From Octopus sinensis (lineage: Eukaryota), in the NCBI RefSeq assembly GCF_006345805.1, contig NC_042999.1, positions 131,998,001-132,062,000 on the forward strand: a stretch of DNA of 64,000 bases, in the 5' to 3' direction. Below, one piece after another: positions 12,520 through 63,326 of the stretch (positions within the stretch are counted from its first letter, which is position 1; each line of letters starts with the position of its first letter). Made by a program: the position numbers and the translations under genes. The notes beneath the pieces are model-generated. The model ran no database searches and was not told the DNA's origin. It was given only the letters and a program-made list of their open reading frames with translations.

Positions 12520-13151
12520 ATACCCAAGGCACACAGAGCTGTGCTCGGTAGTGAAATGAAAGCATGTTATAAAAATAAACCTACTGAATAATAATAATAA
12601 TAATAAATTTTGGGGGAGAGGGTAAGTTGGTTACATTGACCCCAGTATTCAACTGGTACTTATTTTTATCTACACTGAAAGGATGAAAGGCAAAGTTGAC
12701 CTCTGAATGTGAAGATGGATGAAATGCCATTAAGCATTTTGCCCAGCATGCTAATGATTCTGCCTTGTAACAGTTCTACTGGGCACTTTATTCTGATTTC
12801 CTTTATATTCATCTTGATGCCTTCTGATACTGTCCTCAAGGACCCAAGAATAATTGGTGCTATTATTATTATTATTATTTTTTTTTTTTTTTTAAGGTAG
12901 TGACCTGGCAGAATCATTAGCATGCTGGGCAAAATGCTTAACGGCATTTCATCCATCTTTACATTCAGAGGTCAACTTTGCCTTTCATCCTTTCAGGGTA
13001 GATAAAAATAAGTACCAGTTGAGTACTGGGGTCAATGTAACCAACTTACCCTCTCCCCCAAAATTTCTTGTTATTATTATTATTCAGTAGGTTTATTTTT
13101 ATAACATGCTTTTACTTCACTACCGAGCACAGCTCTGTGTGCCTTGGGTAT
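12520..13151. repeat. Inverted repeat: 245-bp arms at 12520-12764 and 12907-13151, 142-bp spacer
   Basis: Manual alignment shows about 8 mismatches and no gaps. Each arm is LINE 3'UTR + (TAA)n + SINE. Confidence 0.93.
12765..12862 (-). mobile_element. Second, older R4/Dong-type C-terminal fragment
   Basis: The minus strand reads APIILGSLRTVSEGIKMNIKEIRIKCPVELLQ next to (TAA)n. The expected continuation IIRKVLDS* lies at about 12330-12360. Confidence 0.6.
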
Positions 13152-14394
13152 GTGCTGTGATGCTCTTATTTTTACTGTATTGAAAGTGTTTTGCATAGGA
13201 TGTGTGCAGTGCCCAGTAGTGCAATTTTCTGTATGTATTGTATATAGTTCTAAGTCTTGGTGTTTTTGTTATATTCTTTTACTTGTTTCAGTCATTTGAC
13301 TGAATATTTGTTTGAATATTTTTTTATTATACCTAATGCACCTACTGTGATAGGAATTGTTTCTGTTTTTAGATTCCACATTCGCGTTACCTCTATCTCC
13401 AGGTCTTTGTATTTTGAAAGTTTCTTCATTTCTTTTAGAGAAATGTTGTCATCTGTTGGTATTGATACATCAATTAGAAAGCATTTTTTTTTCTTCATGA
13501 TCTCTGACAATTATATCTGGCCTATTGGCCTTAATTTCTCTATCAGTGTGTACTGGCATATCCCATAGTATGGTTGCTTTCTTGTTTTCTGTGACCTTTT
13601 CTGGTGTGTGCTTATACCATCTTTTTTCTGTTGTTGTTCCATAGTGTTAGCATAGCTTCCAGTGTATGTAGTTCCCAACTCTGTCATGTCTGTGAATATA
13701 TTCCTTCTTAGCCAGGACTGGGCATCCAGAGATGATAAGATTTATTGTTTCTTCTCCATCTCCACATATTCTTTTCATTATATGATTTTGGTAATTTCTG
13801 GTGGGGAAGCTTTGGTCTTGCGCTGCAATTTAAAATCCCTCTGTCTCTGCTTTGAGTCCTGAGCTTCTCAACCATTGCTGGGATTTTTCTCTGTCTATTT
13901 CTTTTGCATTTAGTTTAGCCCAGTATTTGCCATGAAGGGGTTTTTCTTGCCATTGTTTTATCACGGTCCATTGCTGTTCTAGTTTTAGTTTGGATTTCAT
14001 TTGTTTTATAGCTTTTGTTGTTTCTTCTTCTTCTTCATATTTGTCAGGTAGTATGACTTATTGTTTGTATTTGTCAGCTTCCTTAAATACTGGAAACAGT
14101 TTTTTTGTTTTGCTCCTGTTTTGTGGCTATTTGTATTAGTTTTCCTTGCTTCTGAAGTAGGTATTTTTTCAGTCCTATGGTGGTTATTTTGTAATAGTTT
14201 TCCAGCTGTATAAGGTCTCTACCACCTTCTAAACATTGTATATATATATAGCCTTTCTATGTCAGATTTTGGGTGGTGCATCCTAAATCCTGTCATTTAT
14301 TTTTCTTGTTTTCCTGTCTATTTTCGTTAGTTCATTTAGTGTCCCGTTAAGGATATTGTAGCTGTAACTTATAACTGGGACGGCTAGAGTATTA

Positions 14395-23179: not shown

Positions 23180-24266
23180 ATATTGTACAATTGTATGCAG
23201 CTTGAATTCTATGAGGTATGGACTTGTACAAATTTTGAATTGTTTCCAAAGAAATTTTCGTCCACTCTTCAGCTAAAACAGTTTCCATTTCTTGTAGTGA
23301 TGATGGTGGAGGATATTGACGCCTTACTTGTTTTTCTAAAATTGCACCATAAATCTTCAATAATATTGAGATCTGGGGACTGTGGTGGCTAGATAAGATA
23401 TTTAACTTTACTAGAATGTTCCTTGTGCCATTCAATAACAATTTTAGCTGTGTGAGGTGCATTATCATCCTGAAAGATTGCATTTCCTTCCAGAAACAGT
23501 TCCACAATCATAGGATGAATTTGATCATAAAATGCTTAAATAGTCTTGACTATAAATTCTGTCATGAAGAGAAACCATTAGGCTGGCAGATTTCCAAGAT
23601 ATAGCCCCAACAGATCATCACAGATCCTCCTCCACATTTAACTGTTGGAAGAAGGCTGTCTCCACACGTATACTCAGCCGGTAGTCGGAAATAAGGTAAA
23701 AGATTACTCATCCAAGAAAATAACATTCTTTCACTGCTCTAGGGACCAATTCTGTTGTTTTTACTCCACTCTAAACGCTTTGCAACGTTTGTTTTTGAAA
23801 GCAGTGGTTTTCTGATTACAGCCCTCCAGTAAAATCCAGCTTTGTGCAGCTCCCGGCAAACAGTTTTTGTGGAAACTGGGTTCTCGGGGTGGTCATTATG
23901 CTCTGCAGTAATTTTAGAACCTCTGTTTTTGTGATCCTTTCTAACAATTCGCATAGGAGTCCAACAGTCCCTATCTGAAAGTTTTGGTTTTCTTCTGGAA
24001 TTTTGTTTCGACGACAAGGTTTTTCTGTCTTTCTCAAAGGCTGTCATTACTTTTAAGACAGTACTTCTTGATACACCAAACATTTTGGCTGTTTTCATTA
24101 CTCTAGTGCCTGCCATATGAGCACCAACCATTTGAGAGTCCAATAGATCTGTCATTTTAATTAACACTAATAATAAATCAAAGAATATAAAAATAAACAA
24201 GCTGTTGACGGTTTTATAGATATTTCAAAATTATGATGCTAGGTATTTCCGTTATTTTGTCCACCA
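23180..24266 (-). mobile_element. Tc1/mariner DNA transposon, degenerate transposase, one TIR remaining
   Basis: ORF 23739-24200 has the Tc1 HTH (AKMFGVSRSTV...RKPKLSDRD...VSTKTVCRELHKAG...IRKPLLS). Catalytic motifs NVIFLDE, FQDDNAP and PPQSPDLNIIEDLW are read across frameshifts, and the C-terminus is EWTKISLETIQNLYKSIP. TIR-like aggtatttccgttattttgtccacc at 24241-24265. Confidence 0.92.
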
Positions 24267-53673: not shown

Positions 53674-54373
53674 GTAAGTTATGTTAACACTGTATTGTTT
53701 ATGGTGGTAGGGTTTCTAATCTCTCTATCACCCTCTCTTTCTCTCACTCTCTCTTTTGTTCTCTCTGTCTTTTTTCTCTTTCTCTCACTTTCTCTTTCTC
53801 TTCTATTGTTCTCTTTTGCCTCCCACATTCTTTCATTATCATTATCATCATCATCATCTGTTGTCCGTGCTAACATGGGTTGAATGGTTTGACCAGGGCT
53901 GGTAAGCTGAGGTGCTGCGCCAGACTCTGGTCCGATTTGGCATGGTTTCTACAGCTGGATGCCCTTCCTAACACCAACCACTCTGAGAGTGTTTTTACAT
54001 TCCACTGGCACAAGTGCCAGTTGCATAATACCTTTATCTGCATAATACCTTTATCTGCCATGACTACAATTTCTTCTCAAGCACAGCATATTGCCAAAGG
54101 TCTCAGTCAGTTGTCATTGCCTCCGTGAAGCCCAATGCTCAAAAAATGCTTCTTACATGCCACCAGCACAGCTGCTAGTTACATGACACCAGCATTGGCT
54201 ACATTGCCTCTGTTAGGCCCAACTCTCTCACCCTCCACTTCCATTCATCTTCCTATCTCTCTCTCTCTCTCTCTCTCTCATCCCTGTTATTATCATCATT
54301 ATCACCCACCATTCTGTTAAATTTTGTCAATGATTACAAATGTCTATAATACTCCCTCCCATCTCTGTTTCAG

Positions 54374-54480
54374 TGTGTTCTTGTGTAGAGTCATTAGAAT
54401 CCCACTACATAAATACCATGGACCATGCACACAGAAGGAAGTTAGAAAAAGTTGACAGATGCCTTAGGGTTCTGGAAAGT
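54374..54480 (+). CDS. WAPL: WAPL internal exon (107 nt): (V)CSCVESLESHYINTMDHAHRRKLEKVDRCLRVLES
   Basis: Acceptor ctctgtttcag at 54373, donor gtaagt at 54481. Phase 1/0; conserved RCLRVLES. Confidence 0.94.
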
Positions 54481-54744
54481 GTAAGTTTATCTGTAATTTT
54501 TCATTTTATCATTGTGGCTTACAGGTGGGAGTGTAACTATAGGCTCAGGCATGGTTGTGTGGTAAAAAGTTAAAGTAAATTATATATGACAGGCTTCTGT
54601 ACAGTTTCCAGTTCTGAAATTTTGTTCTCAAAGCATTCAAGAATATATTAGAAGACACTTGCCCAAGGTGCCGTGCAGAGGGGCTGAACCGAGAACCATA
54701 TAATTGCGAAGGAAACTTTCTTGAACGCATAGCCATTCCCAAAT

Positions 54745-55035
54745 TTTTGTGTATGTGTGAGATTGTGTATACTGATTACATGTTTGTGTGTGTGAGAGAG
54801 AGAGAGAGATATTGTGAATACTGTTTGTACATGTGTGTACAAGATTGTATATACTGTTTACATGTATGTTTGTATGTGTGTATACGATTTGTATATTGTG
54901 TGTGTATGACATTGTGTATAATCTGTACATGTGTGTGTGAAATTGTGTATACTATTTACATGTGTTTGCGTGAGAGTGTGTATACTGCTTGTACATGTGT
55001 GGGTATGAAAATGTGTATACATGTGTTTGTGTGTG
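54745..55035 (+). repeat. Degenerate about 30-bp tandem repeat (gagattgtgtatactgtttacatgtgtgt)
   Basis: Recurrent attgtgtatact...acatgt units. Confidence 0.7.
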
Positions 55036-57544
55036 TAGGTACTGGCAAGGTATGTGGTTAAAATGTTTGCTTTTGCAACCATGTAATTCCACTGTACAAC
55101 GCATTGGTGAGTGTCCTCTAGTGGAGTCTCCAGTTGACCAGTGCTTTGTGAGTGGAAATTGGTAAACAAAATTTATGTAGAAGCCTGGAAGTGGCAGTGG
55201 CAAGGTGGAGAATTTGATTTAATAGATGCCTCTCCATCTGGGTTTTTATATTTTCTTTTCAACTTTATATCACTTTATCATACAGTAGTACCTCTCTCTT
55301 CTGTGGCTTTTGAAGCTTACATAGCTTGTAGGTTTATATCATTGGGATATTCCTCCTTGCAATGACTGTTTGTTAATTGCTGTTTATTGGTTCTTCTCCT
55401 GTGTCTTGATTCTGATTGGCTTTTTGACTGGATTGATAGAACTGTTTTATTGCTAGTTAATCCCAGATTTTATAAAACTGAAGGCATTTCAACTTATGAC
55501 CTTCTTGCCTTATTTATTGGGCACAGTATACCTAGGACTGCTTTAGTCTGTATTCCTTTCTTTATTGAAGATGGTATGGTATGATTTAAGAGATATTTGG
55601 CTGCTATTTCTAGCAGGTCAATCAACTACATCAAGACTTCCTCCTCCTCCTCATCATCATCATCATTTAACGTTTGCCTTCTATGCTGGCATGGGTTGGA
55701 TGGTTTGACAGGAGCCAGCCAGGTAGAAGACTACACCAGGCTACAAGGTTTTTATAGTGGGATGCCCTTCCTAACACCAACCACCCTGTAGAGTGACCTG
55801 AGTGTTTTCTTACGTGGCATCAGCACAGGCGAAGCCAGTTTTGGCATAGTTTTTACAGCTGGATGCACTTCCAAATGCCAACCACTTCATATTGTGGACT
55901 GGATGCTTGTTACGTGGCACCAGCACTAGCAGGGCCACCAAGTAACTTGCATGACAAGGAATTTTGAGAAGGCGAGGGGGCATTAGAGGAGGTGATCTTG
56001 TGTCAGATGATGAAAGATTAGAGTATGACAGAGGCAGAAACAGGTGTCTTGCTATAGAGGAGGTACATGGTTACCTGACCGAGAGAGACAGAGAGAGGGG
56101 GGGTAGGAAGAGAGAAGGATACATATTTGTATTGTCTATTAATTATTTATTGTGATGACTGTTCAGATATAAGTATGATTCTAAGGCTAGATATTGTAGG
56201 AGATTAGTGTTTTTTTGTATGTATGTATACAGGCATGCATAAACTGACAACACTGTGTAGCTTCTTTTTTTCTTTGTCTTTGGCCAGTAATTGTATTTCC
56301 TATTTTCTTCCTATCTAGAAATTAAAGGAAATGACTACTATTCCCTTCAAACTTTGTTGCTTTTCTGACCTGGACATCAATGTTTTGAAACTGGTCTATT
56401 TTCCACTACATTTCAGAAATATAATTCTAGCAAATATTCTGCTCAATACAATAGATTTTCTTGTCAGTTGCTTGACCTTAGTGGCATCTCTGATCATGAG
56501 CAGGAGTATTTAGGGAGCATCATAGCCATATGTTGAGAAGAATTCTTTGAGGTTTGAATAAATGCAACAAGAGCAAAGTTTGAAGGAAATATTAGCTAGT
56601 TTTCATACTTTCTAGAAGTAAGCAAATAGGAAATAACAGTTGCTACCCAAGGATAAAAATCATGTTACATAGTGTAATCTTTTTGGAAACATATTTTGTC
56701 ATACAGTATAACAGAAAATTGGTATGCTCCTTTTGATTAACAAAAGTAAAATTGATGCCCTGAGCTCAAATTATTGGCAGAAAGAATTTGAACATAAAAG
56801 ATGTGTGTGTACCTATATATATTCATATATTTTTACATTAAATTAAAGGATTACTCAATACATCTTAGTGAAGTACATATATATTGTCACAAAGAAAAGC
56901 TTTCCTTGTACAAATTATTATAATTTTTAATAATAACAGTAGTAATATGTTTGTGTATTTATATGATATAATTTACATATATGTGTGCTTTTAAGAGTGA
57001 CACTTATTAATATAGTGTTGGTGTAAGTCAGTTGATGGGACTGAATGGTGATTGTCATTTAGTCACATATAATGAAGTGGTTGCATTTATTGAGTGACCC
57101 AGTAGGTGATAAAGTAGGCATGTCTGTTGATGTCAAAGCATCTTGATGGATGAACAAGTTGTTGCTGCCCGAAGTGATTGGTCTGAAAGCTGGTGATACT
57201 GATGTGTCTGTTGATACCAGTCTGTCAGTTTGTTTTATTGACAAATGAAAACTGCCTGCCCAAGGGTCTATGTTCATGTCTCCAGAGTATACGTGTTTGT
57301 CCATTGGAAAAACAAGCACCACCAAGTCTTTCTTAAATATGCTTGATGACTTGTGCAGTGACTTTGTTTAAAGTGAAGGGTTGCACACTGTCATCCCCAT
57401 TCTCTTGTCCATGAGCTTCTTTAATCTATTGCCAGACCAGTTCAAGATGACTGGGGATGGAAACATGATGCATTGGACAACCAAGATGTCTTACTTGTCA
57501 CATCTTGCTCTCTGCACTCCACAGTGTGTTGCTACATTGTTGCA

Positions 57545-58240
57545 GAGTAAAAAATGGTTCACATTTGTGTTTCTCTTTTGTTTATTTTTCAAAGTTTTCT
57601 TCATTTTTATGATGTATTTGTCCTCCGCTTATTTACTTTTTATATCTTGTACTGTGACTGGCAACTCCTGAATGACATTACACATAATGTTTTTAATTTC
57701 CTTTTCTGATTGTAATACGGCTATCACTGTATCTTCTAGTGGTTCCACATTCTTCAGAATTAGCTGAGATAAACAATCCGCATAGCCAGTTTCCTTAGAA
57801 AGAATGTACTCCATCTTAAAGTTGTAATTTAACAATATTGTACCCTAGCATTGTAATCTGTTGGCTGTATGGGTAAGAATTCCTTTCTTCGATCCAAAAA
57901 TTGGTAGTAACGGTTGGTGGTCTGTCTGAAGCCACAGACTTCTACCATAGAGAAATCTGTAAAATTTCTTCCCAGCAAAAATAATCACTGGAGCTTCTTT
58001 CACTACCTGACTGTATTTTTTTTCTTCTGCAGTCAGAACATGTGAGGCATGAACCACTGCCTTCATATTACCATCTTTATGTTTGTGTAGCAAAATTGTT
58101 CCTACACTGTATTCAGAAGTGTTAGAAGCTACAACAGTCTATGCTGCTGGATCGAAATGAGCCAGTGACAAATCTGAAAGTAATATTGTTTTAATATCCT
58201 AAAATGCCACATGCAATTTTTGATGTTTTTCTGAACATAG
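57545..58240 (-). mobile_element. Ty3/Gypsy LTR retrotransposon pol fragment (RNase H region)
   Basis: ORFs 57845-58093 and 57629-57835: AVVHASHVLTAEEKKYSQVVKEA..IIF..KKFYRFLYGR...LQTDHQPLLPIFG...TANRLQ...LLNYNFKMEY....GYADCLS. No LTRs recognised. Confidence 0.9.
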
Positions 58241-59136
58241 GTTTCCCAATTCTTTTCCACATGTCAGTATTAATATATAAGTGAAGCAGGGTAGCAACAA
58301 CTTAACAATCCAACAAACATTCCATGAACTATACATAATCCAACAAACGATATTTCGACAAATTATTAAAACGACACCTTACGATTTCCTTCAATTAATG
58401 CCTATTCTCCATCTTTCTCTCTCAGACCGCTACTATTTAAAGTTGTTTGGTCAAGTTTATTCTTGCAGGGAGTGTTGTGACCCTCATCACAACAATCTAT
58501 TTCTAGAATCTTCTCTACTGACTTACTTTACAGACATACCTTTGCTTTACAACCATATGGCTTCTGGTTTAATCTCACTGCATGGAATTGGGGCAAGTGT
58601 CTTCTACCATGCCCTCAAGTTTACTAATAACTTGTGACTAGAATTTGATTGATGGAAACTGTAGAAGTACTTCACACACACACATACACAAATGTATTCT
58701 AGGATGGTTCCCTGTCATATGTGGATGAGGGTTCGATCAACTGAATTACCTGCACCTAAATTAATGTAAATCTCTGTTAGAATCATTGTGACATTGTGTG
58801 TGTGTGACAAATGTGTACCTCTGGGTCACCTGTACAATCCATTTGATGGGCTTCTTTACTGTTTCCATCTACCGAGTTTCAAGCACAAAGTGTATGTTGA
58901 CCCTAGGTTACAGAAAATGACATTTACTGAAAATGCTATGCATTGAAGTCAAGCTGAGGACCTTGTAGCTGTAGAGTAGACCTCCCCCTCCATACAGAGG
59001 AACTGGTCATTGGTCCATATGAAACTTTTAACTACTGTTTCAAAATTGTGATGGAAAATGAAATATGTAAATAAATAAAAACTGTTTGTCTCAGTTATAT
59101 ATGTTTACAACCCAGACCGATGTTAGTGTATGTCTA

Positions 59137-59167
<31 letters not shown>

Positions 59168-59587
59168 CATATGTATGTGTATCATTTGTTTGCTTTCCAT
59201 GCTGGACATTTTGACCAGATCTCATGAGTTGGAAGACCATGTCATGCTCCATTGTCTCAGTTTGGAATAGATTCCTCTCTTCTTATTATCATGCAATATA
59301 TATTGATAATTTAAATATGAATCTACTTTAGCTGTTTATAAAATCTTGGTTTGTTGGTGAGATTGAATTTATGTAAAGAATTAGCTTTACATTGAATCAT
59401 CAGAATGAGATGATATTTTATGATTCAGGGAGTGGTTTCCTATTTCTGCCATTCAGTTTGTTGCTTAATGAGTTTCTTAAATATTCATAAAGTGGATTAA
59501 GTTTTACATTTTATGAGATTGCAAAACACTTAATTGATATGACCTTCAAAGCTAGTATATCATGTTCAAACCCATGTCTTAATGGAA

Positions 59588-61276
59588 TTTCAACTCACAG
59601 CATGTGTCAATATAGAAATGTTGTAAACTGGTGTAGAACTTATTTTAATCACTGTTTCAGCAGAGTAGAATTTACTTTCACCACAGTCTCACTGGAATAG
59701 AACTTACTTTAGCCAGTGTCTCACTAGATTTGCGACTTACTCTAGATATTGTCTAAACAGAATCGAATCACTATGTATAAATGGCAATTGATTACTTGAT
59801 AAATCAATTTTTGTGCTCCAATTAAATTTATCTTGTCAGCATTGTTTAACTCACTTTCTTCTCATTCTCTTTTCTCACTAAGCCTTTTTTTTCTTTATAT
59901 GCGTGTATAGATAGGTAGACTATTTATTTATATATATATCATCATCGTCGTCATCATCGTTTAACGTCCGCTTTCCATGCTAGCATGGGTTGGACGGTTC
60001 AACTGGGGTCTGGGAAGCCCGAAGGCTGCACCAGGCCAGTCAGATCTGGCGGTGTTTCTACAGCTGGATGCCCTTCCTAACACCAACCACTCTGTGAGTG
60101 TAGTATATATATATATATATGTATATGTATGTATGTTTCGTTTTTGGATTTGGATTTGGTTTGCAAGATTCTTTATATGAGACTATTGAAAAGGTTGCAA
60201 TATGCAACGAAAATTTTAGAAAATAAAAATAAGAAATAAGTGGAAATTTTACCGGTGTGTGTGTGTGTTAAATAATAAGGCACTAAAAGAGAATGACTCT
60301 CCCCAGACACAACAGAATATGTATGTATATAGTAATAATAACAATAATCCTTGGATGGAATGCATAGCTGCTCACGTTTCTACAGACTACATCTTTTAAG
60401 ATCACAGTCCGTATTCCTGGGACGATTACAATGTAGTCCATAGTATCCATAGGCATCAGTTAGATCATCCTTGTGTGTGTGTGTTCATGTATGCTTATGT
60501 GTACATATTGAAATGTATGTATGTATAGGAGAGTGTGCTGTACTCCACTGTTTGTTTTGGTATGATTTTCACATGTCCACACCCTTCCTGACACTAACCC
60601 CTTCACAGAGTGCACTGGCTACTTTTTTCAAAGCACCAGCATTAGTGAGGTTACCATGCAATTTGCAAGACCAAAGACTAAGTGGACATGTGATAGACAA
60701 GGAGGCAGCTTTGTGCTAGCTGTTTGGCAGTTGAAATATGAAAGAAGGGATAGGAACTGACTTTTTGCTGCAGAAGAGATATAAGGCTTACCTTTAGATT
60801 ATATGAGGGTAGGTGGCTATAGTTAGTGTACTGCCAGAAGGAGAGGTAAAGATGGTTGGGACTAGTATGTCTGCAAGATACAGGAAGGCAAATAGAAGAA
60901 AACAGAGGACAAAAGATTAAAACGGATAATAAGCAGGGGTTGAAGGAGTGTGTGGAGAGGGTAAGGGATGATTAAAGATGGGTGTAGTGGTGAATAGTGA
61001 ATAAGGGCATAAAGAGTGGAACAGTGGTCTATGGTAGATATGAATTGTTTGCAAACGCTAAAAAATTTGAAAGAGATAAGTGATCCTTAAGTTAAGGATA
61101 ACAAATGCACTTTTGTCACTCAAGTGAAAATTGTAATGTTTGATATTAACGGTTGGTGAATTGTGGAGTCTAGAGACCAGATTTTTTTTTCAACTCACAG
61201 CATGTGTCAATATAGAAATGTTGTAAACTAGTGTAGAACTTATTTTTATCACTGTTTCAGCAGAGTAGGATTTACT
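59588..61276 (+). repeat. 89-bp direct repeat at 59588-59676 and 61188-61276
   Basis: tttcaactcacagcatgtgtcaatatagaaatgttgtaaact...cagagtag.atttact occurs twice with 3 mismatches. Confidence 0.92.
60183..60219 (+). ncRNA. Minimal type I hammerhead ribozyme motif, U3-A8 core variant
   Basis: cua [UUGAAAA G] GUUGC-aauau-GCAAC [GAA] AAUU U uag: 3-bp stem I, 5-bp stem II, palindromic 4-nt stem III. Confidence 0.6.
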
Positions 61277-61342
61277 GATTGATTTTTTTTTTCTCTTGTT
61301 GCTATTTGTGTGTGTGTTTGTGCACACACACATATATATATA

Positions 61343-61383
<41 letters not shown>

Positions 61384-62305
61384 CTATAATATTACTACTA
61401 TTATTATTAAAAATTATAATAATTTGTACAAGGAAAGCTTTTCTTTGTGACAATATATATGTATTTCACTAAAATGTATTGAGTGATCCTTTAATTTAAT
61501 GTAAAAATATATGAATATATATAGGTACACACACATTATCCTTTATGTTCGAATTCTTTCTACCAATAATTTGAGCTCAGGCATCAATCTTACTTTTGTC
61601 AATCAAAACTTATTACTGTTTTGTTTTCACAACCAGCAAAAGCATTTTTATTTTAATTCAAAAAATTTGTTTTTTGTCTTCCCAAAATGATGAAGTTAGT
61701 GATTGCCATGTCGATGCCATTCATTAACTGAATAATTTATCTTACCTCTGTGCACAGTAAACCAATGTAAACAGTGTGATGTAATCATTGATCCACTCCG
61801 AATTACAACCCAAAGTACACCCAACCCCTTGACAAAAGCATACTATAAAATTGTATATATTTCACTTGGTCTCACATTGCAGCTTAATCAAGTAAAAAAA
61901 ATTAAAAAAACGTTATAATTGATGTTTTTAGATGTGAAAAAAAACAGTAAAAAGGAAAAAAATGCACTTCAAATTATTCCTTGATTACTACACTTAACAG
62001 AAAGCTCTGTTTATGTTTCAAGTTTTCCCATACTTTTCTAAACTTATTGACCATGTATCTATGTTCATATGTAACCTTTTTTGTGTACATGGATGCATGT
62101 TTCACTTTATTTGCTATGAATGAACTTTTCTCATGAATATAGCATCGCAACATATCCTCATTACTTATAAGATTTTATCAGAAGGATTTGTGTGTATTGA
62201 GTGTTAATATGTACTTCAGTATAATATTTAATATAGATAACCAATAAATGTCATAATCAGATGCTTCAGTCTCTCACTGTTTCTTGCTTTCTCTCTTTCT
62301 CTTAG

Positions 62306-62382
62306 GTAACTGTTACTAATATTGAAAATCAAAGTTTTCTGATCTCATACAAACAATGTGCACTTGTGAATTCACTCAACAC
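62306..62382 (+). CDS. WAPL: WAPL internal exon (77 nt): VTVTNIENQSFLISYKQCALVNSLN
   Basis: Long polypyrimidine tract and ttag acceptor at 62305, donor gtaagt at 62383. Phase 0/2; continues RVLES into VT..N.ENQS.LI.YK. Confidence 0.92.
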
Positions 62383-63326
62383 GTAAGTTGTCATTAAACT
62401 TGTTTCCATGATTTTTTCTTTTTTCTTTCTTTTTTGCTTTTTTGTTTGTTGTTTTTTTGTTTTTGTTTTTGTTGTCACCCAACATCTGCCCTCTCCCTCC
62501 AACTCTAATTATTTGTCAGGATTGTTCGATCAAGTACTTTATCTGGTAAAGATGAGGTTTTAAGACTTGACTGATGCTTATAGAGAATTTGAAATGACAA
62601 TGTCACCGTCATCACCATCATGTTATAATCTGGAATAGATTTCATACCTTACCACTCAAGACAAATTGTTTAGTGTTTGATACACTGCACCTGTTAAAGC
62701 CATAAAACTACTTCTAACCTCTTATTCCATCATTTCATATCTGGATAGAGAATTCTTCAGGTTTCTATCGATATTTTTTGTATTTTATTTACTTTTCACA
62801 GAGAAGCTGAAAGAGCTTTTGATTGCTTGTAAATTCATAAAAATACTAGATGATGCTTATGACAGGTGGGGGGAGGGGATGGTAGTTTATAACAGACGAA
62901 AACTTAGCAGTTTTTACAGGTCAACCTGCCTATGGCTACAGAATAGATCTGTGTCTGTTGCAAGTTTCTAGCCAGTTGAGAGGCAATGTGGTGGTGGAAC
63001 ATTACTGTAGGTAGAGCTATAAAAGCGAGGAAACAGACTAGGAAAATCAGGAGGAAAGGAGTACAGGGCAGAACAATACCATGTAGCACGAAGAGATGGT
63101 TTGCTTAGCTGGAGATGCAGAAAATTCTTATAACTGAATTTATTGTAGATTTAGAGAAGAAATTTCATAATTGAAAGCAAAACTTAGAATGGTGAGGCCT
63201 CAAAATAAACTTAGTGAAGTTTTGGTAAATAGGAAGATAAAACTCTATACCCATCAAGGAAATGACCATGCTTGAAGTGCCACAAAAAAGTAGTAAAATT
63301 CTATAGAATATATACTTAGTGTAAAC

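Follow-up and report, generated by a model that had tools for sequence, protein, structure and literature searches.

The 64,000-nucleotide stretch of Octopus sinensis DNA analyzed here (the window) carries a minimal type I hammerhead motif within an intron of WAPL. This motif very probably belongs to the 3′ pLTR of an octopus Penelope-like retroelement, and the WAPL copy is best read as a truncated and likely inert insertion. The assignment was obtained from the sequence and fold of the motif, the structure of the insertion, the linkage of the motif to reverse transcriptase (RT) and GIY-YIG endonuclease (EN) frames across the genome, and the comparison of five subfamilies.

The hammerhead motif and its insertion in WAPL

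The host intron, the insertion, and the segments of the motif are listed below in window coordinates.

54372..54480, + strand: WAPL exon 5′ of the host intron (exon mapping)
54481..62305, + strand: WAPL intron, GT..AG, 7,825 nt, containing the insertion
60123..60134, no strand assigned: left 12-bp target-site duplication, within a TA/TATG tract
60136..60181, − strand: inverted 3′ tail of the element, with a 6-nt internal duplication
60180..60321, + strand: forward 5′-truncated pLTR (3′ end) of the Penelope-like element, without the tail
60183..60219, + strand: minimal type I hammerhead motif with U3-A8 core (sequence, fold, descriptor search)
60183-60185 (CTA) and 60217-60219 (TAG), + strand: stem I
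60186-60192, + strand: core TTGAAAA
60193, + strand: extra G after A9
60194-60198 (GTTGC) and 60204-60208 (GCAAC), + strand: stem II, 5 bp, with a 5-nt loop between the strands
60209-60211, + strand: GAA
60212-60215, + strand: palindromic stem III, AATT (AAUU in RNA)
60216, + strand: U17, with the predicted cut between 60216 and 60217
60317..60328, no strand assigned: right 12-bp target-site duplication, first 5 bases shared with the element
62306..62385 (end approximate), + strand: WAPL exon 3′ of the host intron

The geometry of a minimal type I hammerhead had been claimed for 60183-60219 in the original prediction, and it is borne out by the sequence, the descriptor search, and the fold. 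The minimal-hammerhead descriptor matched once in the window and in none of 300 second-order Markov copies of the window. A z of −2.25 was obtained for the fold of the motif. In the folded window copy the pair probabilities exceed 0.91 for stem II and are only 0.04-0.34, varying with context, for the 3-bp stem I. The core and stems of this copy are intact, and its differences are confined to loop II. The core residues U4 G5 A6 N7, A9, G12 A13 A14, A15.1-U16.1, and H17 are those of the Penelope minimal hammerheads. The same holds for the 3-8 pair (U3-A8 here, a U3-G8 wobble in two sister subfamilies), for the extra nucleotide between 9 and 10.1 (a G) followed by G10.1-C11.1, and for the palindromic stem III (AAUU here, A-G-N-N-C-U in two sister subfamilies). 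With TTGAAAA as its core, the motif does escape CUGANGA searches, as had been anticipated. Rfam gave no match over the entire window at the gathering score, and none of its hammerhead families matched 59500-61000 at E values up to 10.

WAPL was identified on the + strand by matches to Pfam PF07814 and by the full-length Octopus WAPL protein, with which the exons were mapped over approximately 199 kb. The claimed position on the sense strand of a WAPL intron is confirmed by the GT donor at 54481 and the next exon at 62306, with both exons on the + strand. A PDB sequence search using a WAPL exon gave no match.

The motif had been placed in an element of approximately 190 bp flanked by TA/TG microsatellite. 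The element is present as a composite of an inverted tail (45 nt) and a forward 3′ end, which overlap by 2 nt at the junction. The short TA/TATG tract is likewise present and contains the 12-bp target-site duplication rather than being a simple microsatellite flank. The forward part, 60180..60321, is 142 nt long and shares 94% identity with the main-subfamily majority, an ordinary value for a family with a median of 91%. An unrelated interspersed repeat of approximately 180 nt adjoins the insertion at 59925-60104 and is matched more than 15 times across the window. By eye, broken Tc1/mariner-like transposase frames were recognized inside a WAPL intron at 23181-24224 (− strand), and fragments resembling the C-terminal part of a non-LTR retrotransposon protein at 13083-13914 (− strand).

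No second sense-strand motif of the clade occurs across the 199-kb WAPL coding span, where the window copy is the sole one; a cleavage-competent dimer therefore cannot form in cis. Further remnants of the clade lie near WAPL at 78596-78670, 112707-112827, and 130026-130172 (window coordinates, contig C3). Only the last of these has the motif, on the − strand and beyond the WAPL coding span. A conserved segment approximately 80 nt 3′ of the motif (60297-60303) is complementary to a 7-nt segment that sits 7-13 nt upstream of the core in intact copies and is lost from the window copy. These segments could form a distal helix I or could provide microhomology for inversion junctions.

It is highly improbable that the WAPL copy works as a ribozyme, active or co-opted, and cuts the pre-mRNA of WAPL either by itself or together with a partner RNA in trans. 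The sense orientation within the intron, the intact core and stems with changes in loop II only, and the many family copies that could supply partners all speak for such activity. They are outweighed by the missing cis partner, by a stem I of 3 bp with a probability of 0.04-0.34 whose distal helix is missing through 5′ truncation, and by an identity to the subfamily majority that is ordinary for the family. In the preferred reading of an inert insertion, the copy would be transcribed passively with the WAPL pre-mRNA and, having no cis partner, would not be expected to cut. This prediction follows from the single sense motif, the 3-bp stem I, and the weak palindrome. Any role in WAPL implied by the original prediction is not supported, since there is no cis partner and the copy resembles the thousands of other insertions that look dead.

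The parent Penelope-like retroelement

The genome was searched at the DNA level using the element, which gave 1,038 candidates, 40 of which were scored and 30 of which were read as loci. The anatomy common to these 30 loci is a forward 3′ end, often 5′-truncated, with a tail of approximately 50 nt present or absent; an inverted copy often precedes the forward 3′ end. Direct repeats of at least 9 bp surround 19 of 24 copies with an inverted tail, or 16 of 21 once (TA)n words are excluded, and the mismatched flank pairs used as the control gave a mean of 0.2. On the strand of the motif and upstream of it, the long copies encode an RT with DKG and YVDD, followed by the CX4CXXC linker and then by a GIY-YIG domain with CCHH. 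The order RT-linker-GIY-YIG was read in loci L031-L033, whose frames are broken. The GIY-YIG domain was identified as Pfam PF01541 (30.7 bits, cut-off 22.6), and the RT piece falls under the Pfam cut-off (E 0.04).

The endonuclease was used as the query for a second genome search, which gave 7,766 candidates; 150 were among the matches listed, and 110 of these, selected by the endonuclease only, were examined. The 3′ end of the element appears on the endonuclease strand at a distance of at most 1.6 kb in 83 of these 110 loci. The motif is covered in 75 of the 110, and the median distance to it from the upstream GIY-YIG frame is 637 nt. The motif accordingly has the pLTR location, sense to the RT-EN frame, of the Penelope minimal hammerheads. 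These endonuclease-linked loci support what had been proposed, namely that the motif is the minimal hammerhead of a Penelope pLTR and that the octopus repeat family to which it belongs is large, and the suggested search for links to Penelope ORFs succeeded with an RT and a GIY-YIG domain on the motif strand. A scan of metagenomes using the endonuclease returned 2 weak loci, in which the motif is absent. The end of a Helitron or DNA transposon, considered for its hairpin and TTAG, was dropped in view of the RT-EN link and the target duplications.

Typical Penelope-like elements, according to Craig et al. (2021, PMC8557442), have lost their 5′ part, come with an inverted copy and a tail on one side, and use (TA)n targets. 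The octopus element has the features of the EN+ members of this group: its RT is followed by a C-terminal GIY-YIG domain with CCHH, and its insertions show one-sided tails, inverted copies, 5′ truncation, and target duplication. It resembles the Neptune and Nematis C-terminal EN+ elements (PMC8557442) in its RT with DKG, its linker zinc finger, and its GIY-YIG domain with CCHH, and also in 5′ truncation, the inverted copy, the tail at one end, and insertion at (TA)n. The CX2-5CxxC linker 5′ of GIY-YIG that is a feature of Neptune and Nematis (PMC8557442) has its counterpart in the octopus CX4CXXC, and this part of the sequence points to an assignment of the parent element to Neptune or Nematis. 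The octopus tail of approximately 50 nt differs from the 30-40 bp published for EN+ Penelope-like elements (PMC8557442).

A relationship to the non-LTR retrozymes (bioRxiv 10.64898/2026.07.22.740005) was also considered, as these carry a type I hammerhead related to those of Penelope pLTRs. Retrozymes are head-to-tail tandem units, whereas the octopus copies, linked to an RT-EN frame, occur as dispersed monomers or as inverted pairs. A single copy was found in the window and WAPL coding span, and the 30 loci read contain no short tandems.

A tandem duplication of 5,044 bp on contig C10 (L031:2966-10000 and L032:1-3275) contains a long Penelope copy and its flank, with repeats 97.5-98% identical. 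It was rejected as a Penelope partial tandem, as it takes in flank that does not belong to the element. Frames for an LTR-retrotransposon-like RT, RNase H, and integrase adjoin this tandem at L031:231-2558. A 228-aa frame at L009:2460-3142 presumably resembles the RT of another Penelope lineage.

Subfamilies, the 3-8 pair, and structural constraint

Copies were counted in the whole genome by exact patterns, for which the backward controls gave 0. U3-A8 appears in 3,705 copies, C3-A8 in 201, U3-G8 in 119, and C3-G8 in 13. The rare C3-G8 class compares with 7 copies predicted under independence, so that any copy-level signal for the pair is slight. For comparison, 96 copies carry a control T-to-C change in stem II, approximately half the number with C3-A8. 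On a rough tree, 30 C3-A8 copies scatter among 20 U3-A8 copies with 14 changes (shuffled mean 15.8). Seven C3-A8 copies were flagged; the C is derived from the junction in six, and one copy belongs to another subfamily. A C3-A8 master lineage was rejected on account of this scatter and the junction-derived residues, and the sequences of the C3-A8 copies fit decay after insertion.

Four subfamilies were recovered in addition to the main one, the first (sister O) using a C3-G8 copy as the query and the other three using the downstream flank only. The five majority sequences are 75-93% identical. The pairs found at 3-8 are as follows.

Main subfamily: U-A in 60 of 63 scored endonuclease-linked copies (75 examined)
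Sister O: U-G in 18 of 28, U-A in 6, C-G in 3 (query included), C-A in 1 (30 examined)
F232: U-A in 12 of 14 scored (30 examined)
F244: U-A in 6 of 9 scored, C-A in 3 (30 examined)
F230: U-G in 7 of 8 scored (30 examined)

All five subfamilies have U as the majority base at position 3; at position 8, three have A and two have G. A double change from C3-G8 to U3-A8 had been proposed; within the family U3 is instead fixed and position 8 alternates between A and G. This alternation agrees with a 3-8 pair that has been kept, as judged from the majority sequences. An ancestral C3-G8 in the sister subfamily was rejected, because the C3-G8 query brought mostly U3-G8 relatives (18/28). A further relative, L165, lies outside the sampled subfamilies; its core is C3-G8, its stem I differs, and its stem III resembles ACGU.

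Compensatory changes were found across the subfamily majorities at pair 2.2-1.2 (U-A to C-G), at pair 2.3-1.3 (C-G to U-A), and at pair 15.2-16.2 (A-U to G-C, alongside a loop longer by 2 nt). These make up three or four events in all, in subfamilies related to one another, and were counted with two stem III loop columns removed by hand. The stem I cells are Watson-Crick in 15 of 15 cases, a result matched by 4 of 120 permutations. Position N7 varies freely (A, C, or U), and loop II is different in all five subfamilies. Among the five majorities, 15 of 15 columns fixed by the model and 3 of 13 free columns are invariant, for rows chosen using a fuzzy anchor that overlaps the core and so fixes it partly by selection. 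For the most distant subfamily, 13 of the 15 columns survive in the majority taken without filtering; the two lost, C11.1 and G12, decayed as a CpG.

Individual copies were compared in a set of 48 rows, comprising the first ten per subfamily by fuzzy anchor, minus two duplicates and one false match, plus the window. Pairing in these rows reaches 91% for stem II taken together with the 3-8 pair, which is not above shuffles (263/500), and their covariation at the copy level is not above shuffles either (236/500). Invariant columns number 22 of 32 in the motif region and 41 of 66 in the shared 3′ block, so that the former is not clearly the better conserved. Conservation of core and flank within the family is approximately 0.92-0.99 for both, away from CpG and subfamily sites. 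The expectation that the stems and core would be conserved or covary holds for stems I and III, which compensate, and is not borne out for stem II and the 3-8 pair, which show no excess. The compensatory changes and the free position 7 are sequence evidence that the motif has been under structural constraint in the parent elements.

A chance hammerhead look-alike within an AT-rich repeat is the least credible explanation, short and AT-rich as the stems are and unmatched as the motif is by Rfam. It is largely refuted by the 0/300 Markov windows, by the endonuclease-linked pLTR position, which is where Penelope hammerheads occur, and by the compensatory changes across subfamilies.

Catalysis, 5′ ends, and significance for the family

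Minimal hammerheads in Penelope pLTRs were described by Cervera and De la Pena (2014, PMC4209133), who observed no cleavage of monomers and low cleavage of dimers and proposed processing of a tandem precursor RNA; a review gives the same picture of cleavage and processing (PMC6765202). The octopus motif shares with these hammerheads, including the U3-A8 form of S. mansoni Cercyon, the type I topology, a helix I of 3-5 bp, the extra base between 9 and 10.1, G10.1-C11.1, a palindromic 15.2-16.2, the pLTR location, and thousands of solitary truncated copies (PMC4209133). The same paper reports approximately 1,300 U3-A8 matches in Schistosoma mansoni, the UUGAAAA core in the S. mansoni(4) Penelope element, UUGAAGA (U3-G8) in the Saccoglossus(1) Penelope element, and AAUU with U17 in Crassostrea gigas. 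Natural U3-A8 hammerheads were also described by Perreault et al. (2011, PMC3088659), who mention earlier in vitro activity. U3-A8 is thus no surprise, having been published for Penelope hammerheads. The octopus motif differs from the published set in its extra base, a G where the consensus has H (one row, Nasonia, has G), in the alternation of U3-A8 and U3-G8 inside one clade, and in its host, the searched part of the supplement having no Octopus row (PMC4209133). No description of this octopus family was found in the open-access literature searched (including PMC6962438).

By analogy with this system, two motifs of one tandem transcript of the parent element would pair through the palindromic stem III. 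The paired motifs would then cut after U17 and free a unit-length RNA, probably slowly. Calculated self-pairing of AAUU is weak, at +2.2 kcal/mol compared to −1.7 for ACGU, and on this estimate the main U3-A8 subfamily may be a poor catalyst. De la Pena and Flores are said to have found in 2001 that an extra G after A9 reduces the activity of a viroid hammerhead.

The 5′ ends of copies bear on the same question. Of 50 pattern-picked copies, 12 have homology that starts exactly 13 nt before position 3 and 26 have a start within 9-17 nt of it; in 8, homology continues more than 50 nt upstream. In three sets of 30 retrieved by flank only, 5′ ends formed no clear cluster where the cut is predicted. 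Among 24 distinct copies that break at the 13-nt cluster, a G precedes the break in 14 (background 10%); an inverted arm can explain this G in 8 copies, leaving 6 of 16. The element itself has a C where short copies (e.g. L355-L374, L335-L354) often show the preceding G. A capped start site inside the pLTR is possibly the source of the cluster, to judge from these breakpoints. A much bolder scheme would have abundant short capped octopus RNAs that start 13 nt upstream and pair in trans through AAUU with intronic sense copies, such as that in WAPL, and so cut host pre-mRNAs. The more than 3,700 motifs would then form a genome-wide self-cleaving layer in which U3-G8/U3-A8 shifts occur without loss of activity; this scheme is scarcely believable.

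It is also conceivable, although rather unlikely, that the motif, though derived from a Penelope hammerhead, is no longer catalytic even in the parent elements and is kept as a structure for promoter function, packaging, or RT binding. Since thousands of copies extend across the cut site, they were made from RNA templates that had not been cut; the model of cleavage by dimers also expects uncut templates, from monomers. Loss of catalysis would suit the extra G, the U3-G8 wobble in two subfamilies, the weak AAUU, and the clustering of short-copy 5′ ends 13 nt upstream of the core and not at the cut site. The published work, with no cleavage of monomers and low cleavage of dimers, also leaves room for other functions (PMC4209133). 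Against this loss, U4, G5, A6, A9, A13, A14, A15.1, U16.1, and H17 are kept in five subfamilies, and N7 and loop II vary while the catalytic positions stay. The non-catalytic structure and the preferred minimal hammerhead differ in activity alone; the identity of the motif is equal in both.

Each of the odd features is already published, and the octopus motif is an additional family of Penelope minimal hammerheads. The class was correctly recognized in the original prediction, the variant is a known one, and the WAPL insertion is an ordinary intronic one. The five subfamilies provide a natural series with U3-G8 and U3-A8, three stem I sequences, and two stem III lengths, which is useful for testing the core pairs tolerated by a minimal dimeric hammerhead. 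The cluster of 5′ ends at 13 nt is a lead to the transcription start of the element and hence to the part of the hammerhead in Penelope transposition.
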